A model generated the notes under the pieces. The model was not told the DNA's origin. It saw nothing but the letters and a program-made list of their open reading frames with translations, and did not search any database. Of a stretch of 64,000 nucleotides of DNA, positions 35,543 through 43,290 are shown one piece after another. The stretch is from Candidatus Lustribacter sp. (GTDB taxonomy: Bacteria > Vulcanimicrobiota > Vulcanimicrobiia > Vulcanimicrobiales > Vulcanimicrobiaceae): NCBI GenBank assembly GCA_965277805.1, contig OZ255842.1, forward strand, positions 2,624,001 through 2,688,000. Reading direction: 5' to 3'. Within the stretch, counting starts at the first letter, position 1. Every line of letters starts with the position of its first letter. The translations under genes and the position numbers were made by a program.

Positions 35543-35929
35543 TCAACGGCTCGACCGCGAGCACGCCGCGCACGCCCCGAAAATCATCACGTCGTGGCCG
35601 GTCGCCGTGAACCCCGGGGGCAGCTCGCCGCGGATCTCGCTCGAGCAGCCGTCGAGTTCGTACACGCGCTTGCACTGCGTGCACTCGAAGTGGTGGTGAT
35701 GCGCTTTGCCGGCGCGTTCGTAGAGCGCCGTGCGTCCCGGAATGTCGACGGCGGTGAGCCAGCCTTCATCTAAGAGCGCGCGTATCGAGCGATACACGGT
35801 CGCCCGTCCGAGCGTCGGGAGCGACGCATGCGCGCCTGCCAGAATCTCGTCGGTGCTTAGCGGCCGGCCCGCGCGCTCGACGACGTCGCGGATCGTCCGG
35901 CGCTGCCGCGTGTTGCGCTCGATGCTCAT
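35543..35929 (-). CDS. Fur-family regulator (Zur-like)
   Basis: TRQR, ATVYR, HHHHFECTQC, GACAAC. Confidence 0.9.
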   Translation of the reverse strand: MSIERNTRQRRTIRDVVERAGRPLSTDEILAGAHASLPTLGRATVYRSIRALLDEGWLTAVDIPGRTALYERAGKAHHHHFECTQCKRVYELDGCSSEIRGELPPGFTATGHDVMIFGACAACSRSSR

Positions 35930-36768
35930 CGTACGGGCGAAACCGACGTCGAGCGACGGCGCCGGCGGCCGATCGCAAGTAAGACGAAGAACGCCGCCGT
36001 GGCGACCAGCACGATCGTCGCACCGCTGGCGGCGCCGGCATAGTATGAGATGTAGAGCCCGCCCACGCAGCTGCCGATCCCGATCGCGGTCGAGGTGAGC
36101 AGCATGGGAACAAAGCGCCGCGTCACTTGCGCCGCGGCGGCTGCCGGCGTCACCAGCAGCGCGGCCACGAGAATGATGCCGATCGACTCGAGCGAGATCA
36201 CGATCGTGAGCGCCAGCAGTACCAGCAACATGTTGTCGATGAACACGACCGGGAGGCCCGACGCGCGCGCGACCGTCGGGTCAAACGCGGTGAACAAGAG
36301 CGCGCGGTAGTTCCACGCAACGGCACCGGCGACGATCGCGGCGAGGCCCAAATCGATCCACAAATCGTCCGGACCGACCCCGAGGATGTTGCCGAAGAGG
36401 AAGTCCTGGAGGTCGACGGTCGAGGTGCGAACCTGGCTCATCAAAAACACGCCGAGGGCAAAAACTCCGGTAAATATGACCCCGATCGCCGTATCGAGCG
36501 AGACGCGGCCGCGCCGGTTGATGTAGCCGATGCCGAGCGCGGTCAGCACCGCGACGACCGCCGCACCGAGTTCGAAGTTCAGTCCGCGAATGTAGGCGAT
36601 GACGATGCCGGCAAACGAAGCGTGCGCGACGCCGTCGCCGATGAACGAGAGCTTGCGCAACACGACGTAGGTTCCGAGCGTCGAACACAGGCCGCCGACG
36701 ACCAGCGCCGTGACGAACGCGCGCTGCATGAAGTCGTAGTGGAAGGGTGCCGTGAGAGCGTCGATCAC
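35926..36768 (-). CDS. Metal ABC transporter permease (ZnuB/MntB-like)
   Basis: FMQRA, GDGVAHA, DFLFGNIL, GIILVAALLVTPAAAA; GTGA coupling. Confidence 0.92.
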   Translation of the reverse strand: MIDALTAPFHYDFMQRAFVTALVVGGLCSTLGTYVVLRKLSFIGDGVAHASFAGIVIAYIRGLNFELGAAVVAVLTALGIGYINRRGRVSLDTAIGVIFTGVFALGVFLMSQVRTSTVDLQDFLFGNILGVGPDDLWIDLGLAAIVAGAVAWNYRALLFTAFDPTVARASGLPVVFIDNMLLVLLALTIVISLESIGIILVAALLVTPAAAAAQVTRRFVPMLLTSTAIGIGSCVGGLYISYYAGAASGATIVLVATAAFFVLLAIGRRRRRSTSVSPVR

Positions 36769-37667
36769 TTGAGCGCCGTGACGATCGTGGTGGTGTCGGT
36801 CTCGAGCATCGAGATGTAGTCGCGCGTCTGGGGTGAGGTTCCGACCGAGTCGTCGTAGAGCATCGCGACGTGCGGAATGCCGGCGCTGCGCGCGACCGCG
36901 TTGACCAGCTTCACGTTGTACTCCGGCTCGGTGAAGATCGCGCGCACGTGCGCGGCGCGCGCGGCGTCGATCAGCTGCGCGAGATGACCGGCACTCGGTT
37001 CGCTGCCGGGAACTTCTTCGATCGCGCCGAGCGTGCGCAAGCCGAAGCGCTTGTTGTAGTACAGCCACGCGTTGTGGAACACGATCATGTTGCGGTTGGC
37101 CGGCGGAATCGTCGCGATCTGGGCGGCGATGCGCGCACTCAACGCGACCAGCTGTCCATCGAGCGCGGCCGCGTTCGCGCGGTAGGTTTGCGCGCCGCCC
37201 GGATCGGCCGCGATCATGCCGTCACGCATTTGCGCGACGTAGTGCCGCGCGTTTTGCGGATCGAGCCACAAATGCGGGTTCGCATCGACGATCTGCAAAC
37301 CGGCGCTGCAATCGACCAGCGGCGTTTTGGTGGCGCCCGAACGCAGCAGGGGCCTGAGCCAGGCCTCGAGGCCGGCGCCGTTTTCGAGGATCAGACCGGC
37401 ATCGTGCGCCCGCACGATGTCGGTTGGGCTCGGCTCGTAGGTCTCGGGCGAAGCCCCGACCGGCATCAGGGAGGTGACGACCGCCCGGCCATGCCCCACG
37501 ACCGAGGCCAGCGAGGCCAGCAACGTCGTCGTAGCCAGCACATCAAGATGCCCCACCGCCGCGGCCCCCGAATCCGCGGGCCCTGAAGCCGCGGAGCCGC
37601 CGCAGCCCGCGAGAGCGAGCGCGGCGGCCAGCAGAACCCCTCGCGTCAGGCCTGCCCAGGGCGCCAC
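36765..37667 (-). CDS. Metal ABC substrate-binding lipoprotein (ZnuA/TroA-like)
   Basis: LAGC lipobox, SPETYEP, NPHLWLDP, FHNAW; start approximate. Confidence 0.9.
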   Translation of the reverse strand: MAPWAGLTRGVLLAAALALAGCGGSAASGPADSGAAAVGHLDVLATTTLLASLASVVGHGRAVVTSLMPVGASPETYEPSPTDIVRAHDAGLILENGAGLEAWLRPLLRSGATKTPLVDCSAGLQIVDANPHLWLDPQNARHYVAQMRDGMIAADPGGAQTYRANAAALDGQLVALSARIAAQIATIPPANRNMIVFHNAWLYYNKRFGLRTLGAIEEVPGSEPSAGHLAQLIDAARAAHVRAIFTEPEYNVKLVNAVARSAGIPHVAMLYDDSVGTSPQTRDYISMLETDTTTIVTALK

Positions 37668-37691
37668 GTCATCCTGAGCTTGTCGAAGGAT
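37668..37691. repeat. Short REP-like repeat copy
   Basis: GTCATCCTGAGCTTGTCGAAGGAT. Confidence 0.6.
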
Positions 37692-37710
37692 CGCCACCAA
37701 AGCCGCTTCG

Positions 37711-37740: not shown

Positions 37741-40035
37741 CTACATGACCGCGGTTACCGTCAGGAGACCTTGAGCTCCGGCAGACCACTGGGTCGTGTT
37801 GAACCCGTTGTTGACCTTGATCACGTACTGATAGCCGCTCAGGTTGAGCACGCTCAGGGCGAATCCGAGGCGATGCGGCGTGGCCTTGCGGCCGATCGAT
37901 GCATCGAACGTCAGGTGCGGAAGCAACCGCCCGGTGCCGTTCTCGAACTCCACCGGATAGCCCGTCCCATAATCGGAGCCGATCGATGCGGTGTACTCGC
38001 CGTTGCGGCCAAAGCGCCACGCGTAGCCGTCCTTGATCGCGACGGCTTGATCGTGATCCTCGGGCTGCAGCGACGTATTGCTGATCGCGTCCGGTGGAAA
38101 CAGAAACGTTCCGCCCGAGATGCCGCCCGCCACCGACTGCGAGAACGTGCCTGAGAGGTACCAGTTCGCACGCGGTTGGCGGCCTTCGAGACGCAGTTCG
38201 AAGCCGTGCGCCAATCCGAGCGCGTTGTTGAATACCGCGAAGATCGGCGTCGGAAAGATCTGCGTCGTGTCGAGCACGTTCCACACGTTGCGCTGCCAGA
38301 CGTTGACGTAACCGTCGATCCCGTTGCCGAACGAGTGCGCGAGCCCGGCTTCGTAGTACGACTCGGTCTGCGGCTTGAGATCGTACACGGGCAACGCACC
38401 GGACGGCGATCCGCCGCCGGCGACGACGGCATCGCGCCGCGTGTCTTCGAGCGACGGTGCACCGTATAGCCGGCCGTAGTAGACGTGAAACGTCGTGTCC
38501 GGCGCTACGCGCAGGTTCGCGCCGATGCGCGGCTGCACTTGATTGCCCTGCACGAACCCGTTCGACTCATCATACCGTAGACCAACCTGTAGCGAGAAGG
38601 CTGCCGTCGGCGTCCATTTGTCTTGCACGTATGCGCTGTAGGCCGATCCGTGCTGCGCGGTATTATCGAAGAACGGCGGCGCACCGGCCGTGACAATCGT
38701 CTCGGCGCCGCTGAAGTTTTCGGCCGAACCTTCGAGGCCGGCTTTGAACGAATGGCTGCCGCTGTCGTGGCCGTAGACCGTGCGCAATCCGAACGATGTT
38801 GCGCGGCGATCGGAGTTCAGCCCGTCGAGCGAACACGGCGGCGCGGCGGGCGCGCAGTCGTCGTCGCTGTAATCGAGCGCCAGGATGTCGTTGGCCAGAT
38901 CGCCCGCGTACACGACGCGGCTCGAACGAAACCACGGGATGACTTGCGTGTACGCACCGCCGGGCGAGGTGTGGGTGTAGTTCGCGCTGCCGAAACTCGT
39001 GTACTCCAGCTGCACGTCGTCTTGTCCCGGGACGTTGACGATCGAATCGACCGGCGTGAGGGTGGGGTTGATCGGGATCTGATAGGTGTTGAACTGGTTG
39101 GAGTAGTTGAACGCGAGCGTGTCGTGCGGGCCCATGTTCGTGATCGTGCGCAAGAACACGTCCGAGAGGCTCGCGCCGTCGTGCACCTGCGCCTGCGTCG
39201 GCGCATCGAGTCCGCGATTGGTGCCTTGCGTGTTCGCATCGAAGAACACGTCGGTCGATCCGATGCGCGAAGCTTGCGAGAACGAGAACTGCGAGGTGCC
39301 GTACGTTCCGATCCCCGCCGAGAACGACGTCTGCGACCCGTTCGGGATGTCGATATCGCGCTTGGTCACGATGTTGATCACCGCGCCCGCGCGCTGGCCG
39401 CCGAACTCCGCCGGAAAGGCGCCGGTGAAGATCTCGAGCGAATCGATGTTGCGCGGATCGATCAGTTCCGAGAAGTTCGAACTTGTCGTGAGCGGCACCG
39501 GTGCGCCGTCGACTTCATAGCTGACGCCGTGAAAGCCGTGCGCCACCGGTTCGTCGTACGAGAACTCGACGATGCCGGGCACCGTTTCCACCAGCCGGTT
39601 GAGGCTTTGCGCCTGCGGCATCGCAGCGATGTCCGCGCTGGTAAACGTGGCCACCGACACCGGGTTACCGCCGGCACCGCGCGTCGTTGCGGCGGTGCGG
39701 CCGATCTCGGCCGGCGCGCCGATCGCGAGCGCAACGTCCGAGACTGAATCCGTCGATACGTCGACCTCGCTTTGAGCGGGCGGTTTTCCGGCGCTCTCCG
39801 CGCGCACGGTGTAGCGTCCAAAGGCGATTTGCCCGAATGTGAAGCGGCCTGCGGCGCCGGTGACGGTGGTCTCGGTCGTGCCTTCGCCGGCGATGGTCAC
39901 GCGAACGCCCGCTGCGGCCGCGCCGTCGATCGTCACGGTGCCGCGAACGGTACCGGTCACGGCGGCCAGCGCCGGCATTGCGAGCATAGGTAATACGAGC
40001 GCTGCGAGCAGCACTGCTATCTTGCGTCCGAACAT
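37741..40035 (-). CDS. TonB-dependent receptor with N-terminal carboxypeptidase-regulatory-like domain
   Basis: Signal peptide; GTVRGTVT...GRYTVRAE; plug YEVDGAPV, GAFPAEFG; barrel YVQDKW, GLRYD. Confidence 0.88.
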   Translation of the reverse strand: MFGRKIAVLLAALVLPMLAMPALAAVTGTVRGTVTIDGAAAAGVRVTIAGEGTTETTVTGAAGRFTFGQIAFGRYTVRAESAGKPPAQSEVDVSTDSVSDVALAIGAPAEIGRTAATTRGAGGNPVSVATFTSADIAAMPQAQSLNRLVETVPGIVEFSYDEPVAHGFHGVSYEVDGAPVPLTTSSNFSELIDPRNIDSLEIFTGAFPAEFGGQRAGAVINIVTKRDIDIPNGSQTSFSAGIGTYGTSQFSFSQASRIGSTDVFFDANTQGTNRGLDAPTQAQVHDGASLSDVFLRTITNMGPHDTLAFNYSNQFNTYQIPINPTLTPVDSIVNVPGQDDVQLEYTSFGSANYTHTSPGGAYTQVIPWFRSSRVVYAGDLANDILALDYSDDDCAPAAPPCSLDGLNSDRRATSFGLRTVYGHDSGSHSFKAGLEGSAENFSGAETIVTAGAPPFFDNTAQHGSAYSAYVQDKWTPTAAFSLQVGLRYDESNGFVQGNQVQPRIGANLRVAPDTTFHVYYGRLYGAPSLEDTRRDAVVAGGGSPSGALPVYDLKPQTESYYEAGLAHSFGNGIDGYVNVWQRNVWNVLDTTQIFPTPIFAVFNNALGLAHGFELRLEGRQPRANWYLSGTFSQSVAGGISGGTFLFPPDAISNTSLQPEDHDQAVAIKDGYAWRFGRNGEYTASIGSDYGTGYPVEFENGTGRLLPHLTFDASIGRKATPHRLGFALSVLNLSGYQYVIKVNNGFNTTQWSAGAQGLLTVTAVM

Positions 40036-40037
40036 CG

Positions 40038-40346
40038 TTAGCGACGGTGCTTCGGATCGGGGCGGATATCGGTTCCGGGCCAAGGCACGATCGACGTGTC
40101 GATCGTCGCGTAGATAACCTCGCCGACGTGCAGTTTGCGCAGGTCGGCGTGCCGCACGGGTTCCACTTCCATCGTCATGGCCATCGGCATCATCGGAAAC
40201 GGATCGTGGTGGATCATAAACGTGTCGCGTTTGGGATCGATCTTCACGATCGTCCCGTGAATGTGCGCGATCGTTTGCGGCGTCGTCGCCGCAATCGTCA
40301 ATGCCATACCGGCACCGGCGATCGCGTGGAAGAATTGCGTCGTCAT
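40038..40346 (-). CDS. CusF-like periplasmic Cu(I)/Ag(I)-binding protein
   Basis: Signal peptide; HHDPFPMMPMAMTM matches the CusF H...MxM site, with Met at the Trp position. Confidence 0.75.
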   Translation of the reverse strand: MTTQFFHAIAGAGMALTIAATTPQTIAHIHGTIVKIDPKRDTFMIHHDPFPMMPMAMTMEVEPVRHADLRKLHVGEVIYATIDTSIVPWPGTDIRPDPKHRR

Positions 40347-40394
40347 GTGTTCTCCGTCAGTTGTGCAATGTACGCCCCGCAGTGGGGCGTTGGA

Positions 40395-41069
40395 TCAGCG
40401 CACGAACGACGGCGGCGCGCGCAGGCCACGCCCGGTCGCGAGGACCGGAATCGCGTAGCCGAAATCGACGCGAGGCGGGAGGCGCTGCACGTGCAACGGG
40501 CCGGCGTCGGCGGCGCGTGCAACAACGGCAACGAGGGCGACGATGATCCGGCGCCCGAGCGCAAGCGCGATGCGTCCGGCAGCGATGCCGAGTGCGGTCG
40601 CGGCGAGGGCGCAGAGGACGAGCAGCGCGACGAGCATCGCACAAACGGGTAAGGCAGGCGGAGTGGAGCGTTCGAGACCCAGCATCGCTACGACCGCAGT
40701 GGCGCCGCCGATCAAGAGCACGACGGCCGTGCGGGCCGGCGGCAGGTGTGCGAGTGCCCCGGCGATCGTTCGCCGCGTCACCGCGCGATGCGGATCGCGC
40801 CACAGCATCACGATCGCCGCCAGCGTCAGGAGCGCGCTCGCGATGATGAGCGCCAGCACGATCGGGCAGATCATCATCGCGGATGGCCCCGGCGAACTCA
40901 TGTCCATGCCCGCCATGCCCGGCATCATCGGCATCGCGCCCGGCGCCATCGGGAGCGCGATCTTATCGGTACAGGTGAGGCTCGTCTGGGCGGCCAGCAG
41001 CATGGCCAGCACGGCTGATGTCAGCAACGCGACCAGCGGGATGGCCGTCCGGGGACGAGTGAGGCTCAC
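40395..41069 (-). CDS. Multi-TM Met/Cys-rich membrane protein with C-terminal RAPP motif (candidate regulatory leader)
   Basis: 4-5 hydrophobic segments, Met-rich loop, ends GRGLRAPPSFVR. Confidence 0.7.
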   Translation of the reverse strand: MSLTRPRTAIPLVALLTSAVLAMLLAAQTSLTCTDKIALPMAPGAMPMMPGMAGMDMSSPGPSAMMICPIVLALIIASALLTLAAIVMLWRDPHRAVTRRTIAGALAHLPPARTAVVLLIGGATAVVAMLGLERSTPPALPVCAMLVALLVLCALAATALGIAAGRIALALGRRIIVALVAVVARAADAGPLHVQRLPPRVDFGYAIPVLATGRGLRAPPSFVR

Positions 41070-41150
41070 CTAAATGGCATTCACGCACCGCGGTAACGAA
41101 ATCCCCCAGCCCAGGCTCGGGCCGTCGCTTCCACGAACGCGCTACGGCTG

Positions 41151-41723
41151 ATGGGGGTACCGCGGAAGCCGCCGGAACCGCCGTCGCAAGAGGCGACGGA
41201 GTTCCTAGAACGCGCGATGGAGCAGTACGGCAAGGCCACGTACAACTTCGCCTACCGCCTGACCGGGAACGAGGCCGATGCCCGCGACCTGACCCAGGAG
41301 GCGTTTATTCGCGTCTACCGTGCCTGGCGGTCGTTTGTGCCCGGCACGTCCTTCTTGTCCTGGATTTACCGGATCGTCACGAATTTGCACCGGGATGAAC
41401 TTCGGCGGCAAAAAGGACGTTTCCAGGAAGAGATACCGGAAGACAACGCGCCCCAAGAGTATGGCGGGTCCAAACCGCTCGCGGTGGACCCCGTCGAGGA
41501 TTACATGGCGGAGCAGTTGGGCGGGCCGCTGGCTAAAGCGCTCTCTCAGCTCTCCCCCGACCAGCGACAAGTCATCGTCCTCGCCGACATCGAGGAATAC
41601 AGCTATCAGGAGATTGCCGAAATCATGGGGTGCTCGATCGGAACGGTACGGTCTCGCCTGCATCGCGCTCGCGCGTTGCTCCGCCGCCTAGTCATTCGCG
41701 AACAGCAGCAAGCTCAACCATAA
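41151..41723 (+). CDS. ECF sigma factor
   Basis: DARDLTQEAF, SWIYRI, SYQEIAEIMGCSIGTVRSRLHRAR. Confidence 0.95.
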   Translation: MGVPRKPPEPPSQEATEFLERAMEQYGKATYNFAYRLTGNEADARDLTQEAFIRVYRAWRSFVPGTSFLSWIYRIVTNLHRDELRRQKGRFQEEIPEDNAPQEYGGSKPLAVDPVEDYMAEQLGGPLAKALSQLSPDQRQVIVLADIEEYSYQEIAEIMGCSIGTVRSRLHRARALLRRLVIREQQQAQP

Positions 41724-41728
41724 AAACT

Positions 41729-42241
41729 ATGCATTACAACGCCGAAACCCTTGACGATTACCTGCACGGCGCGCTCGGACCCGAACGCGACGCAACGATT
41801 CACGCTCATTTGGAAGGCTGCGCGACGTGTCGCGCGCTCTACGACGAAGGCGCCTCGGTGCGCGACTGGCTGCAGAACGCGGCCCGCGCGGAAGAGCGCG
41901 AGTTTCCTTCGATCATCAAAGCACGCGTGTGGGAACGCGTGCGCGCGATACCCGCACCGGTGTCGTTCGCCGATCGCTTGCGCGCCTTGTGGCGCCCGAT
42001 GATCGCGGTGCCGATTGCCGCCGTCCTCGCGGCCTTCGTGTACGTTGGGGTGCCCGGAATTCACGGCAGCGGTCAACCGGCCGGCGTTGCGGCGACGTAT
42101 CTGCTCGAAGAACACGCTGCTCTCGCCTCCGACAACCCGCTCGCCGATCGCGGCCTGATCGTACCCGCATCGATGGTCGACGATCGGCAAACCAGCGGCT
42201 TGATCGAAGCGACCGATACGGCGGCCGCATCCGACCGGTAG
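41729..42241 (+). CDS. Zinc-binding anti-sigma factor (ZAS), single TM
   Basis: HLEGCATC (HxxxCxxC), TM MIAVPIAAVLAAFVYVG. Confidence 0.85.
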   Translation: MHYNAETLDDYLHGALGPERDATIHAHLEGCATCRALYDEGASVRDWLQNAARAEEREFPSIIKARVWERVRAIPAPVSFADRLRALWRPMIAVPIAAVLAAFVYVGVPGIHGSGQPAGVAATYLLEEHAALASDNPLADRGLIVPASMVDDRQTSGLIEATDTAAASDR

Positions 42242-42243
42242 CG

Positions 42244-43290
42244 ATGCTTCGGCTCGCAGCGGCGCTCGCGATCGGAGCGGCGTTCATGTTGCCTATGGCC
42301 GCGCTGGCGGCGAAAAAGCCGGCCACGCCGCCGGCGCCCGACGCGAACGCGCTCGTGCGCGAAGCGCTCGAAGCGCCGCGCCACGTTTCGTACGTCGGGC
42401 AAATGCAAACGATCCGCTGGGGCACGCGTGTGGCCAACGCGACGATCCAGCGCGTCGAGCACCTCGCTCCCTCGAGCACGCGCCGCACGTTCCTCGCGCC
42501 CGAAGCGCTCTACGGCGAGTACGACATCACGCTCGGCACGACCACGACGAAGATCGATCCCAAGCAGCGCCGCGCGATGGTCTCGGAAAACCCGTCGTCC
42601 GACAACGAAATCGCGATGAACAGCAACATCGCGCTGCTGGTCGCCAACTACCGCGCAGTCATAGGTCCGGTCGAGATCGTCGCGGCGCGTCCGGCGACAA
42701 CGATTTCGCTCGTGAACCGCTACACCGGCGAACGCATGATGCGCTTGTGGATCGACAACGCCACCAAAGTCGTGCTGGCGAAAGAAGCCTACCACCAAGA
42801 CGGATCGCTGGCATGGCGCTCGCGCTTCGATGATATCCGCTTCACCGGTGAAATCCCGAACGGCATCTTCTCAACCGCGATTCCGTCCGACTTCCAGCAA
42901 GTCGAAGGCCGGCGCTTCGCCGACATCAACGACGATCTGCAGCAGACGCTCGAAGATGCCGGCTTCAAGCCGGAAAATCCGAAGTATCTCCCCGATGGTT
43001 TCCACATCATCGGCGCGGAGAACTCGATCTTCCGCGGCCTGCACAACCTGCATCTGCTCTACAGCGACGGTATTCGCACGCTCTCGCTCTTCGAGAACAA
43101 CTCCGACTCCGAACCTGATTTCGGCGACGTGAAGCCGTCGATCACCCACTTCGAAGGCCACGACGCGCAGTACGTCAAGGACGGCCCCACCACGCTCCTC
43201 ACCTGGCGCGAACACGGCCTTGCCTTCGCCCTCATCGGCGACCTCGACCTAAAAAACCTAACCGAAATAGCGATAAGCGTCGTCCCCTAA
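42244..43290 (+). CDS. RseB/MucB-like periplasmic sigma regulator
   Basis: Signal peptide; SYVG, RLWIDNATKVVL, YLPDGF, LLYSDGIRTLSLFE. Confidence 0.8.
   Translation: MLRLAAALAIGAAFMLPMAALAAKKPATPPAPDANALVREALEAPRHVSYVGQMQTIRWGTRVANATIQRVEHLAPSSTRRTFLAPEALYGEYDITLGTTTTKIDPKQRRAMVSENPSSDNEIAMNSNIALLVANYRAVIGPVEIVAARPATTISLVNRYTGERMMRLWIDNATKVVLAKEAYHQDGSLAWRSRFDDIRFTGEIPNGIFSTAIPSDFQQVEGRRFADINDDLQQTLEDAGFKPENPKYLPDGFHIIGAENSIFRGLHNLHLLYSDGIRTLSLFENNSDSEPDFGDVKPSITHFEGHDAQYVKDGPTTLLTWREHGLAFALIGDLDLKNLTEIAISVVP

Follow-up and report, generated by a model that had tools for sequence, protein, structure and literature searches.

A four-helix membrane protein ending in RAPP, a candidate arrest leader of copper genes in Candidatus Lustribacter and its relatives

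The best-described relatives in function of the gene examined here are two leader proteins of the DUF2946 family (PF11162) that control the genes behind them by arresting their own translation. CruR (Bp2923) of Bordetella pertussis has 145 amino acids and a CXXC motif fixed 45 residues ahead of a RAPP motif that lies 3 residues from its end. A 162-nt spacer separates it from a TonB-dependent transporter, and its regulation works by Rho-dependent termination and needs RAPP (PMC9426467). The peptide arrests on RAPP in vitro, with a toeprint that puts the two proline codons in the P and A sites (PMC12992588). CutF of Rhodobacter capsulatus, a small secreted DUF2946 protein with a CXXXC motif, stalls on PPP in an EF-P-dependent manner; copper induces this stall, which melts a stem-loop masking the ribosome-binding site of cutO and so turns on a detoxifying oxidase (10.1101/2025.02.05.636593). 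We analyzed a 64,000-nt stretch of Candidatus Lustribacter sp. DNA (assembly GCA_965277805.1, contig OZ255842.1, positions 2,624,001 to 2,688,000), called the window below, in which an initial annotation had proposed that a 224-amino-acid membrane protein ending in RAPP is a larger, copper-sensing counterpart of these leaders. The two precedents agree with how that annotation cited them, on the points that PMC9426467 and 10.1101/2025.02.05.636593 report.

A wider class of RAPP and RGPP leaders was described in the EMBO J in December 2025 (PMC12992588). Its members have fewer than 300 amino acids, carry the motif near the C-terminus and precede genes for TonB receptors, YcnI, PCu(A)C and PepSY proteins, with YcnI and PCu(A)C genes listed as metal-related partners. 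According to the same paper, four-transmembrane (TM) members carry conserved Cys, His and Met residues, and four-TM RAPP proteins of Streptomyces lividans, one of which has a predicted copper site, arrest both in vitro and in vivo. For the related motif of ApdA and ApdP, RAP in the P-site together with Pro in the A-site blocks peptide-bond formation (PMC10951233). The window protein has the features of the class: 224 amino acids, four TM helices, RAPP 4 residues from the stop, and a same-strand CusF-like gene 48 nt further on. It differs from the published leaders that precede TonB receptors, nearly all of which carry a signal peptide (PMC12992588), in being polytopic, and its likeness to the Streptomyces four-TM arrest peptides is one of description.

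The leader gene lies at window positions 40395..41069; like all features below, unless stated otherwise, it is on the minus strand. It starts with GTG and its stop codon is at 40395-40397. Translation returned the open reading frame (ORF) of the initial annotation and its C-terminal end, GLRAPPSFVR, with the GLRAPP codons at 40410..40427 and RAPP, the predicted arrest motif, at 40410-40421. RAPP thus occupies residues 217-220 of 224, 4 residues ahead of the stop. The annotation had staked its idea on conservation of this motif in homologues, and the motif is conserved. GLRAPP is invariant in 31/31 aligned homologues, and RAPP in 36/36 sequences of a wider alignment that reaches down to 24% identity and has a mean column identity of 35%. 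The 31-sequence set also keeps C68, P69, L74, D92, L109 and R166 besides G215-L216-R217-A218-P219-P220, and the 36-sequence set has eight invariant residues only, A14, C33, C68, P69, R217, A218, P219 and P220. Among loci, the motif's Gly, Leu, Arg, Ala and Pro are encoded by varying synonymous codons, so the constraint acts on the peptide.

We compared 33 related loci (L001-L014 and L027-L045, a set that includes the window's own copy and some duplicates). An intact leader is present in 31 of the 33, each with RAPP 3-8 residues ahead of the stop. The leader in L042 is cut by a contig end, and the matched copy in L040 has frame breaks, yet RAPPSPAR followed by a stop is still encoded in the neighbouring frame. 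The motif is otherwise rare in this genome: among 1.56 million residues in coding-like frames there are 17 instances of RAPP, the rarest of the 12 permutations of its residues, the other 11 having a mean of 50 and a minimum of 26, in agreement with the strong avoidance of RAPP in bacterial proteomes generally (PMC12992588). No coding-like ORF of the genome besides the window leader carries R[AG]PP 12 residues or fewer from its C-terminus. By analogy with the ApdA/ApdP structures and the CruR toeprint, we infer a stall at which the P-site holds Pro219 (codon 40413-40415) and the A-site Pro220 (40410-40412). We consider it probable that the 224-amino-acid gene is a RAPP arrest leader.

Two further features of the C-terminus were observed. 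The most distant leaders, in L012-L014 (genus g2 of the same family), end in RRR(P/S)SRAPP rather than GRGLRAPP, and in L012, L013 and L014 the leader directly precedes a transporter. The Leu216 codon (40422-40424 in the window) is TTG in 11/23 loci and TTA in 3/23; genome-wide these two account for 13% and 1.5% of Leu codons. We found neither a pairing partner nor another reason for this usage.

The leader is a real, conserved gene of an unnamed, lineage-restricted family. Its third-position GC content (GC3 = 0.85) and its homologues rule out a shadow ORF. At E ≤ 0.01, 63 homologues came up in a word-based search; they are annotated as hypothetical except for two called 'MFS family permease' by one source. 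Neither Pfam nor NCBIfam has a family that matches the protein, and all 63 homologues are without a Pfam domain. A profile search of 1.84 billion representatives extended the family to 72 clusters at E ≤ 0.001; bar one weak match of 1218 amino acids (E 7e-4), these are fragments or resemble the family in length, and none is a short, DUF2946-sized relative. The family was found in 8/301 sampled genomes of the phylum and 3/100 genera, all within a single taxonomic family. Its neighbours in the ESM Atlas are unnamed clusters, mostly from Vulcanimicrobiota plus one from Actinomycetota; the nearest named family there, DUF6412 (score 0.77), is a lead only. In L001, whose leader is 95% identical, tblastn matches to the leader, transporter and anti-sigma/RseB genes are split across frames, which suggests indel errors of a long-read metagenome-assembled genome (MAG) and not real pseudogenes. 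Two RNA libraries hold short contigs only, one of 164 nt over 40103-40241 with 2 mismatches and another covering 41034-41200, and none of these contigs spans the leader-cusF junction.

The initial annotation had called the protein a variant of the DUF2946 leaders. In a hidden Markov model search, PF11162 gave no match to the window protein at E ≤ 0.1 and matched 0/31 members at E ≤ 10. Neither alignment contains a conserved CXXC, and the residues 45 ahead of RAPP, where CruR has this motif, are G172-R173-R174. We therefore rejected DUF2946 membership on the failed PF11162 match and the missing CXXC, and regard the family as an analogue of CruR and CutF, not a detectable homologue. PF11162 had 0 matches above its cut-off in 121 genomes of the same taxonomic family, and sub-threshold matches in 20/121, many with stop codons (this tally includes G238 and G329, flagged unpublished, which support only the tally and locus L020). 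At twelve of the sub-threshold places (L015-L026) there was no RAPP-ended leader; the frames there that end in R[AG]PP or RAGP are Arg-rich and look non-coding.

The genes behind the leader connect it to copper. The first, at 40038..40346, encodes a CusF-like predicted periplasmic copper-binding protein of 102 amino acids (PF11604, CusF_Ec; E 1.8e-8, 34.6 bits against a cut-off of 27), and its orthologues in L011, L041, L043 and L044 score 36.8-38.3 bits to the same model. The second, at 37741..40035, is a TonB-dependent transporter with an N-terminal CarboxypepD_reg domain, a plug and a barrel (PF07715, 36.9 bits; PF00593, 65.3 bits; both above cut-offs). These Pfam matches bear out the same-strand order of CusF-like gene and transporter that the initial annotation had read from the sequence. 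The transporter had been listed as 37741..40083, and its start is probably the ATG at 40035-40033, the listed TTG at 40083, which overlaps cusF by 46 nt, being too long; this ATG stands 2 nt past the CusF-like stop TAA (40040-40038) and opens a signal-peptide-like MFGRKIAVLL. The two genes look translationally coupled by this stop-start junction. Every NCBIfam match that might have assigned a substrate class to the transporter is far below its cut-off. Among solved structures searched by sequence, the transporter matched FepA/PirA plugs only (E about 1e-4) and the CusF-like protein matched none at E ≤ 1.

The same kinds of gene follow the leader across the sample. Among 28 distinct leader copies, 26 are informative, with at least 290 nt downstream, and the other two have less than 80 nt. 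The first same-strand gene downstream is CusF-like in 20/26, a TonB-dependent transporter in 5/26, and a CopC-CopD fusion, itself followed by a DUF1775 (YcnI-type) gene, in 1/26. Copper or TonB genes thus come next in 26/26 informative copies, the conservation of neighbourhood that had been put forward as a check; none of the computational checks named in the initial annotation spoke against its idea. Additionally, we observed two divergent leader paralogues placed back to back, on both strands, at L006:5003-6585 (also L032 and L040). One stands directly ahead of a TonB-dependent transporter and the other ahead of the CopC-CopD fusion and the DUF1775/YcnI-type gene, and the MAG of L006 also has a canonical leader-CusF-transporter locus (L002).

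Translation of the leader's last codons appears, in predicted folds, to be tied to initiation of the next gene. The CusF-like gene has its Shine-Dalgarno (SD) sequence, GGAG, at 40352-40355. Both the minimum free energy and the centroid fold of 40335-40440 contain an interrupted outer helix in which the codons from Pro220 to the stop codon (5' arm, 40396..40412) pair with a 3' arm (40354..40370) containing GACGG, which overlaps the SD. Nested inside is a GC-rich hairpin, ACGCCCC-ACUGC-GGGGCGU (40372..40390), 5 nt past the stop. In a 15-locus alignment, 84% of cells pair in the outer helix, versus 32-48% when the partners are slid, and six pairs have changed on both sides, a count that 6/500 shuffles reach. 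An alternative register, in which CUCCG of the Ala-Pro codons pairs with CGGAG, has 84.7% of cells paired and is weaker against shuffles; the two registers are indistinguishable in silico and the alternative is equally compatible. The nested hairpin recurs 5-8 nt past the stop in nearly all related loci with its stem sequences changed and 79.8% of cells paired.

We also calculated SD pairing over the whole structural ensemble. At least 4 of 7 SD-window bases are paired to the RAPP-to-stop codons in 19/23 loci and at least 2.6 in 21/23, with a mean of 4.6; the background, 216 co-directional gene pairs of the genome with a similar spacer, has a mean of 1.37, and 14% reach 4.0. In the distant loci L009, L010-L013, L041 and L043, the spacers are unrelated in sequence and SD pairing is kept, with scores of 4.3-7.0. 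The base ahead of GGAG matches the Pro codon, as CUCCG/CGGAG, CUCCU/AGGAG (L031), CUCCC/GGGAG (L034) or CUCCA/UGGAG (L037). Codon usage in the motif points the same way: the Ala codon of RAPP is GCT in 12/23 loci versus 4.4% genome-wide, the first Pro codon is CCT in 7/23 versus 2.2%, and each choice yields CUCC, which is complementary to GGAG. The non-coding arm may, in the core clade, have adapted to the commonest codons. The RAPP-to-stop codons appear, in these models, to serve as the anti-SD strand of the next gene.

What such a stall might sense depends on the protein body. An AlphaFold2 model built from 36 sequences (mean predicted local distance difference test score, pLDDT, of 76) has helices at residues 6-30, 69-91, 95-107, 111-132 and 140-188. 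Together with hydropathy it gives four TM helices, 6-30, 69-91, 111-132 and 140-~165, so that the earlier description of 4-5 TM segments was fair and four is the better count. TM1 (40980..41054), preceded by R5 and R7, is predicted to run N-in/C-out; TM2 (69-91), a cytoplasmic helix (95-107), TM3 (111-132) and TM4 with its cytoplasmic extension (140-188) are encoded at 40506..40865, and TM4 runs on as a long arginine-bearing helix to residue 188. The four-helix bundle is modelled at pLDDT 84-93 over residues 70-190. The tail, residues 189-224, has low confidence (pLDDT 53-60), as expected for a segment that would be bound in the ribosomal tunnel and not for a folded domain. No fold in the PDB matches the model at E ≤ 0.001 (best E 2.2). 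By the positive-inside rule, the charge distribution in the sequence agrees with an N-in topology, an arrangement that would place the Cys33/Met-loop/Cys68 segment and the short loop 133-139 outside and the WRDPHR loop and arginine-rich tail inside.

The candidate ligands lie in this outer segment. Cys33 (40971..40973), at the predicted periplasmic end of TM1, is invariant in 36/36 sequences, and Cys68-Pro69 (40863..40868), at the periplasmic start of TM2, in 31/31 and 36/36. Between them is the predicted periplasmic Met-rich loop, residues 41-66 (40872..40949), modelled at pLDDT 56-61 only. The initial annotation had singled out this loop, in which 9 of 26 residues are Met and which C33 and C68 flank, and a second Cys pair, VCAMLVALLVLC (C142, C153). 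The loop is indeed present, but its Met-richness is common and not universal: MPGM is nearly invariant in the close set, and distant members carry His runs or extra Cys instead. The second Cys pair exists in the window protein but is not conserved in homologues. On sequence comparison, the conserved sensor candidates are C33 and C68-P69, and not the second pair or strictly the Met content. C33 and C68 lie 184 and 149 residues ahead of R217.

Motif invariance, synteny, topology and helix come from in silico work; from them we infer the stall, the ribosome footprint, the copper signal and the direction of regulation as follows. As the leader is made, its four helices would insert in the inner membrane, so that the tail at the C-terminus stays cytoplasmic and Cys33, the Met-rich loop and Cys68-Pro69 face the periplasm. 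A ribosome that has reached R217-A218-P219, with Pro220-tRNA in the A-site, would stall. Its footprint on the mRNA would then extend from the Ala/Pro codons roughly to the final sense codon, the whole 5' arm in either register, and leave uncovered the nested hairpin and, some 50 nt further on, the ribosome-binding site. Because the stalled ribosome holds the 5' arm, the ribosome-binding site of the CusF-like gene would be freed for a second ribosome. This gene would be turned on, and the TonB-dependent transporter with it by way of the 2-nt stop-start junction. Once the stall is released and translation terminates, the helix, with the nested GC hairpin inside, would form again and mask the site, a logic known from SecM, MifM and CutF. 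The length of the stall would be set by the periplasmic Cys/Met site, most likely by Cu(I) binding. The signal may travel through the packing of the four-helix bundle and of TM4's long extension, a part of the protein that would just be emerging from the tunnel at arrest, and so change the pull on the nascent chain.

CopCD/YcnJ and YcnI have a role in copper acquisition. Because the regulated genes (a transporter and a periplasmic chaperone, with CopCD/YcnI at sister loci) resemble a copper-acquisition set, we favor the direction of CruR, in which absence of copper would mean stalling and expression, and copper would mean release and repression; the opposite sign, as in CutF, would also be compatible. 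We lean toward the whole chain, from RAPP arrest through SD unmasking to copper as the signal. A fuller version is tentative: the leader would be a polytopic co-translational Cu(I) sensor in which binding at a periplasmic Cys-(Met/His)n-Cys-Pro site changes bundle packing and so the pull on RAPP some 150 residues on, with arrest codons that double as an anti-SD, helped by the rare GCU and CCU.

The proposed mechanism combines features of both DUF2946 leaders. Like CruR, the leader heads an operon that includes a TonB-dependent transporter, carries an export or TM signal at its N-terminus and offers Cys-based candidate copper ligands; its RAPP lies 4 residues from the end and that of CruR 3. 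Unlike CruR, which has 145 amino acids, one export signal and an invariant CXXC, it has 224 amino acids, four TM helices and an invariant C33 and C68 about 150 residues ahead of the motif, and in place of a 162-nt spacer and Rho it has a 48-nt spacer and a predicted SD-masking helix. The likeness to CutF, as proposed here, would consist of a nascent exported protein that senses periplasmic copper by Cys and a C-terminal stall that opens a ribosome-binding-site stem-loop. CutF differs in its PPP motif, its small secreted form and its role in detoxification, whereas the leader has RAPP, is polytopic and precedes uptake-like genes, with the opposite sign favored.

Several observations weigh against this account. 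In the RNA, the 106-nt region is no more stable than shuffled sequences (z = -0.65), a result that is usual at 65% GC and lends the helix no support. SD pairing beats synonymous recoding (fraction ≤ 0.05) in 7/23 loci, with a fraction of 0.72 for the window locus, and codon-level selection is not demonstrated in the core clade because its commonest codons already give pairing. Two of the 23 loci, the plus-strand copy in L006 and L044, have little predicted pairing. The covariation is modest, and one of the aligned sequences was itself the source of the structure under test; because the sequences are related, locus counts overstate independence. In the protein, the invariant cysteines stand about 150 residues ahead of RAPP, versus the fixed 45 of the CruR CXXC, and a signal would have to cross three helices. 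The His-rich loop of some members means that the metal need not be the same across the family, and a ZnuA-like protein, an ABC-3 permease and a Fur-family regulator encoded behind the transporter offer zinc or manganese as an alternative context. Finally, the organism is an uncultured one, represented by an Eremiobacterota MAG.

A RAPP arrest leader could answer to a signal other than copper, either the capacity for membrane insertion by Sec/YidC or, by way of a disulfide between C33 and C68, the redox state of the periplasm. Protein localisation is monitored by known RAPP peptides (ApdA/ApdP, PMC10951233), the invariant residues here are two cysteines and not methionines, and the CutF model itself invokes periplasmic disulfide formation (10.1101/2025.02.05.636593). 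The leader would also share with SecM, MifM, VemP and ApdA/ApdP release by a pull on the nascent chain and an output in which a downstream ribosome-binding site is unmasked. Unlike these, which have sec or yidC genes downstream and sense the transport machinery, it has copper genes downstream and conserved cysteines that suggest a ligand. No sec, yidC or dsb gene lies downstream; a CusF-like, TonB-transporter or CopCD gene does so in 26/26, and Met or His, typical metal ligands, abound in the loop that the cysteines enclose. We consider a non-copper signal unlikely.

A stall might instead act on transcription, if the GC hairpin, or Rho loading on the spacer, terminated the transcript unless the ribosome was suitably placed. 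CruR works by Rho-dependent termination (PMC9426467), and a GC hairpin just past the stop in nearly all loci would suit such a design. In L012 and L014 this hairpin is followed by TTT(T), so regulation there may include termination. In the window, however, the hairpin is followed by ACAUUGC and not by a T run, and scans of 39900-41300 found neither an intrinsic terminator nor a sigma-70 promoter. The spacer has 48 nt versus 162 in CruR, and the outer helix reaches the SD. A purely transcriptional output thus seems doubtful to us, and transcriptional and ribosome-binding-site mechanisms could coexist.

The leader might be a working part of a copper pathway, such as an inner-membrane Cu(I) acceptor or channel, in which RAPP would only pace the protein's own folding or couple translation, and regulatory sensing would play no part. 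At 224 amino acids, with a bundle at pLDDT 84-93 (70-190), it is larger than typical leaders, and it always travels with copper genes. Nevertheless, A14 is the one residue kept invariant besides C33, C68-P69 and RAPP, at a mean column identity of 35%, a pattern unlike that of a transporter; normal proteins strongly avoid RAPP, and the PDB holds no fold match. We find this role improbable.

Behind the transporter lie a ZnuA-type binding lipoprotein (36765..37700; PF01297, E 1e-67), an ABC-3 permease (35926..~36760) and a Fur-family regulator (35543..35929), with no ABC ATPase gene in this row; the next ORFs are unrelated (YmdB-like, PHP). On the plus strand, at 41151-43290 and 81 nt from the leader start, a divergent group encodes an extracytoplasmic function (ECF) sigma factor (SigE-like), a zf-HC2 anti-sigma factor and a MucB/RseB-like protein. 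The ECF sigma is 96-99% identical among loci where the leader is only 51-58% identical. We rejected the leader as an anti-sigma factor for this sigma because the zf-HC2 anti-sigma and RseB-like genes already follow it. The order divergent ECF sigma, leader, CusF-like, transporter, ZnuA, ABC-3 and Fur is kept in L001, L002 and L005 (L005 without Fur). L003 and L004 have the same order with inserted genes, the available sequence ending inside ABC-3; a protein query for the transporter gave no match in L004. The inserted CopCD and YcnI-type genes stand between the transporter (or CusF) and ZnuA, so the ZnuA/ABC-3/Fur block is a separable neighbour. That the regulated pathway handles zinc or manganese is very improbable: although this block follows directly on the same strand, its best NCBIfam models are AztC/AztB and MntC (all below cut-offs) and some members have His-rich loops, CopCD and YcnI-like genes come before ZnuA in L003 and L004, in L006 a transporter or CopCD follows the leaders and ZnuA is absent from their surroundings, and CusF_Ec, CopC, CopD and DUF1775 are copper families.

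The novelty is lower than the initial annotation had supposed, since RAPP leaders before TonB receptors and copper genes, arrest by four-TM proteins included, are already published (PMC12992588). The main text of that paper contains no mention of Eremiobacterota, CusF, Shine-Dalgarno, stem-loop or secondary structure, and the supplementary files searched, all but one of the set, contain no Eremiobacterota, Vulcanimicrobiota or CusF. Among the papers searched, none joins 'arrest peptide' and CusF, and those that combine Eremiobacterota, copper and TonB deal with other matters, judging by title and abstract. New here are the lineage-restricted family, its polytopic sensor body, the reduction of its invariants to two Cys (plus Pro69), Ala14 and RAPP, and stall codons that appear to act as the anti-SD strand.

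The family offers a small test system of eight invariant residues, in which the cysteines, RAPP and the helix arms can be mutated separately, and it bears on a question raised by CruR, CutF and the EMBO J 2025 class, namely how a ligand outside the cytoplasm becomes a force on a nascent chain. If the Cu(I)-sensor reading is true, tertiary folding of a membrane protein would gate translation on an external ligand. A polytopic sensor body would be joined to a compact output, in which one and the same set of codons would stall the ribosome and mask the ribosome-binding site of the gene that follows. For annotation, the analysis puts a name to a family of 'hypothetical proteins' and marks the CusF-like, transporter and CopCD genes behind them as probably regulated after transcription. 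If the proposal is right, control of copper genes by RAPP stalling arose, or was kept, in the little-known phylum Eremiobacterota, in a family without detectable relation to DUF2946.

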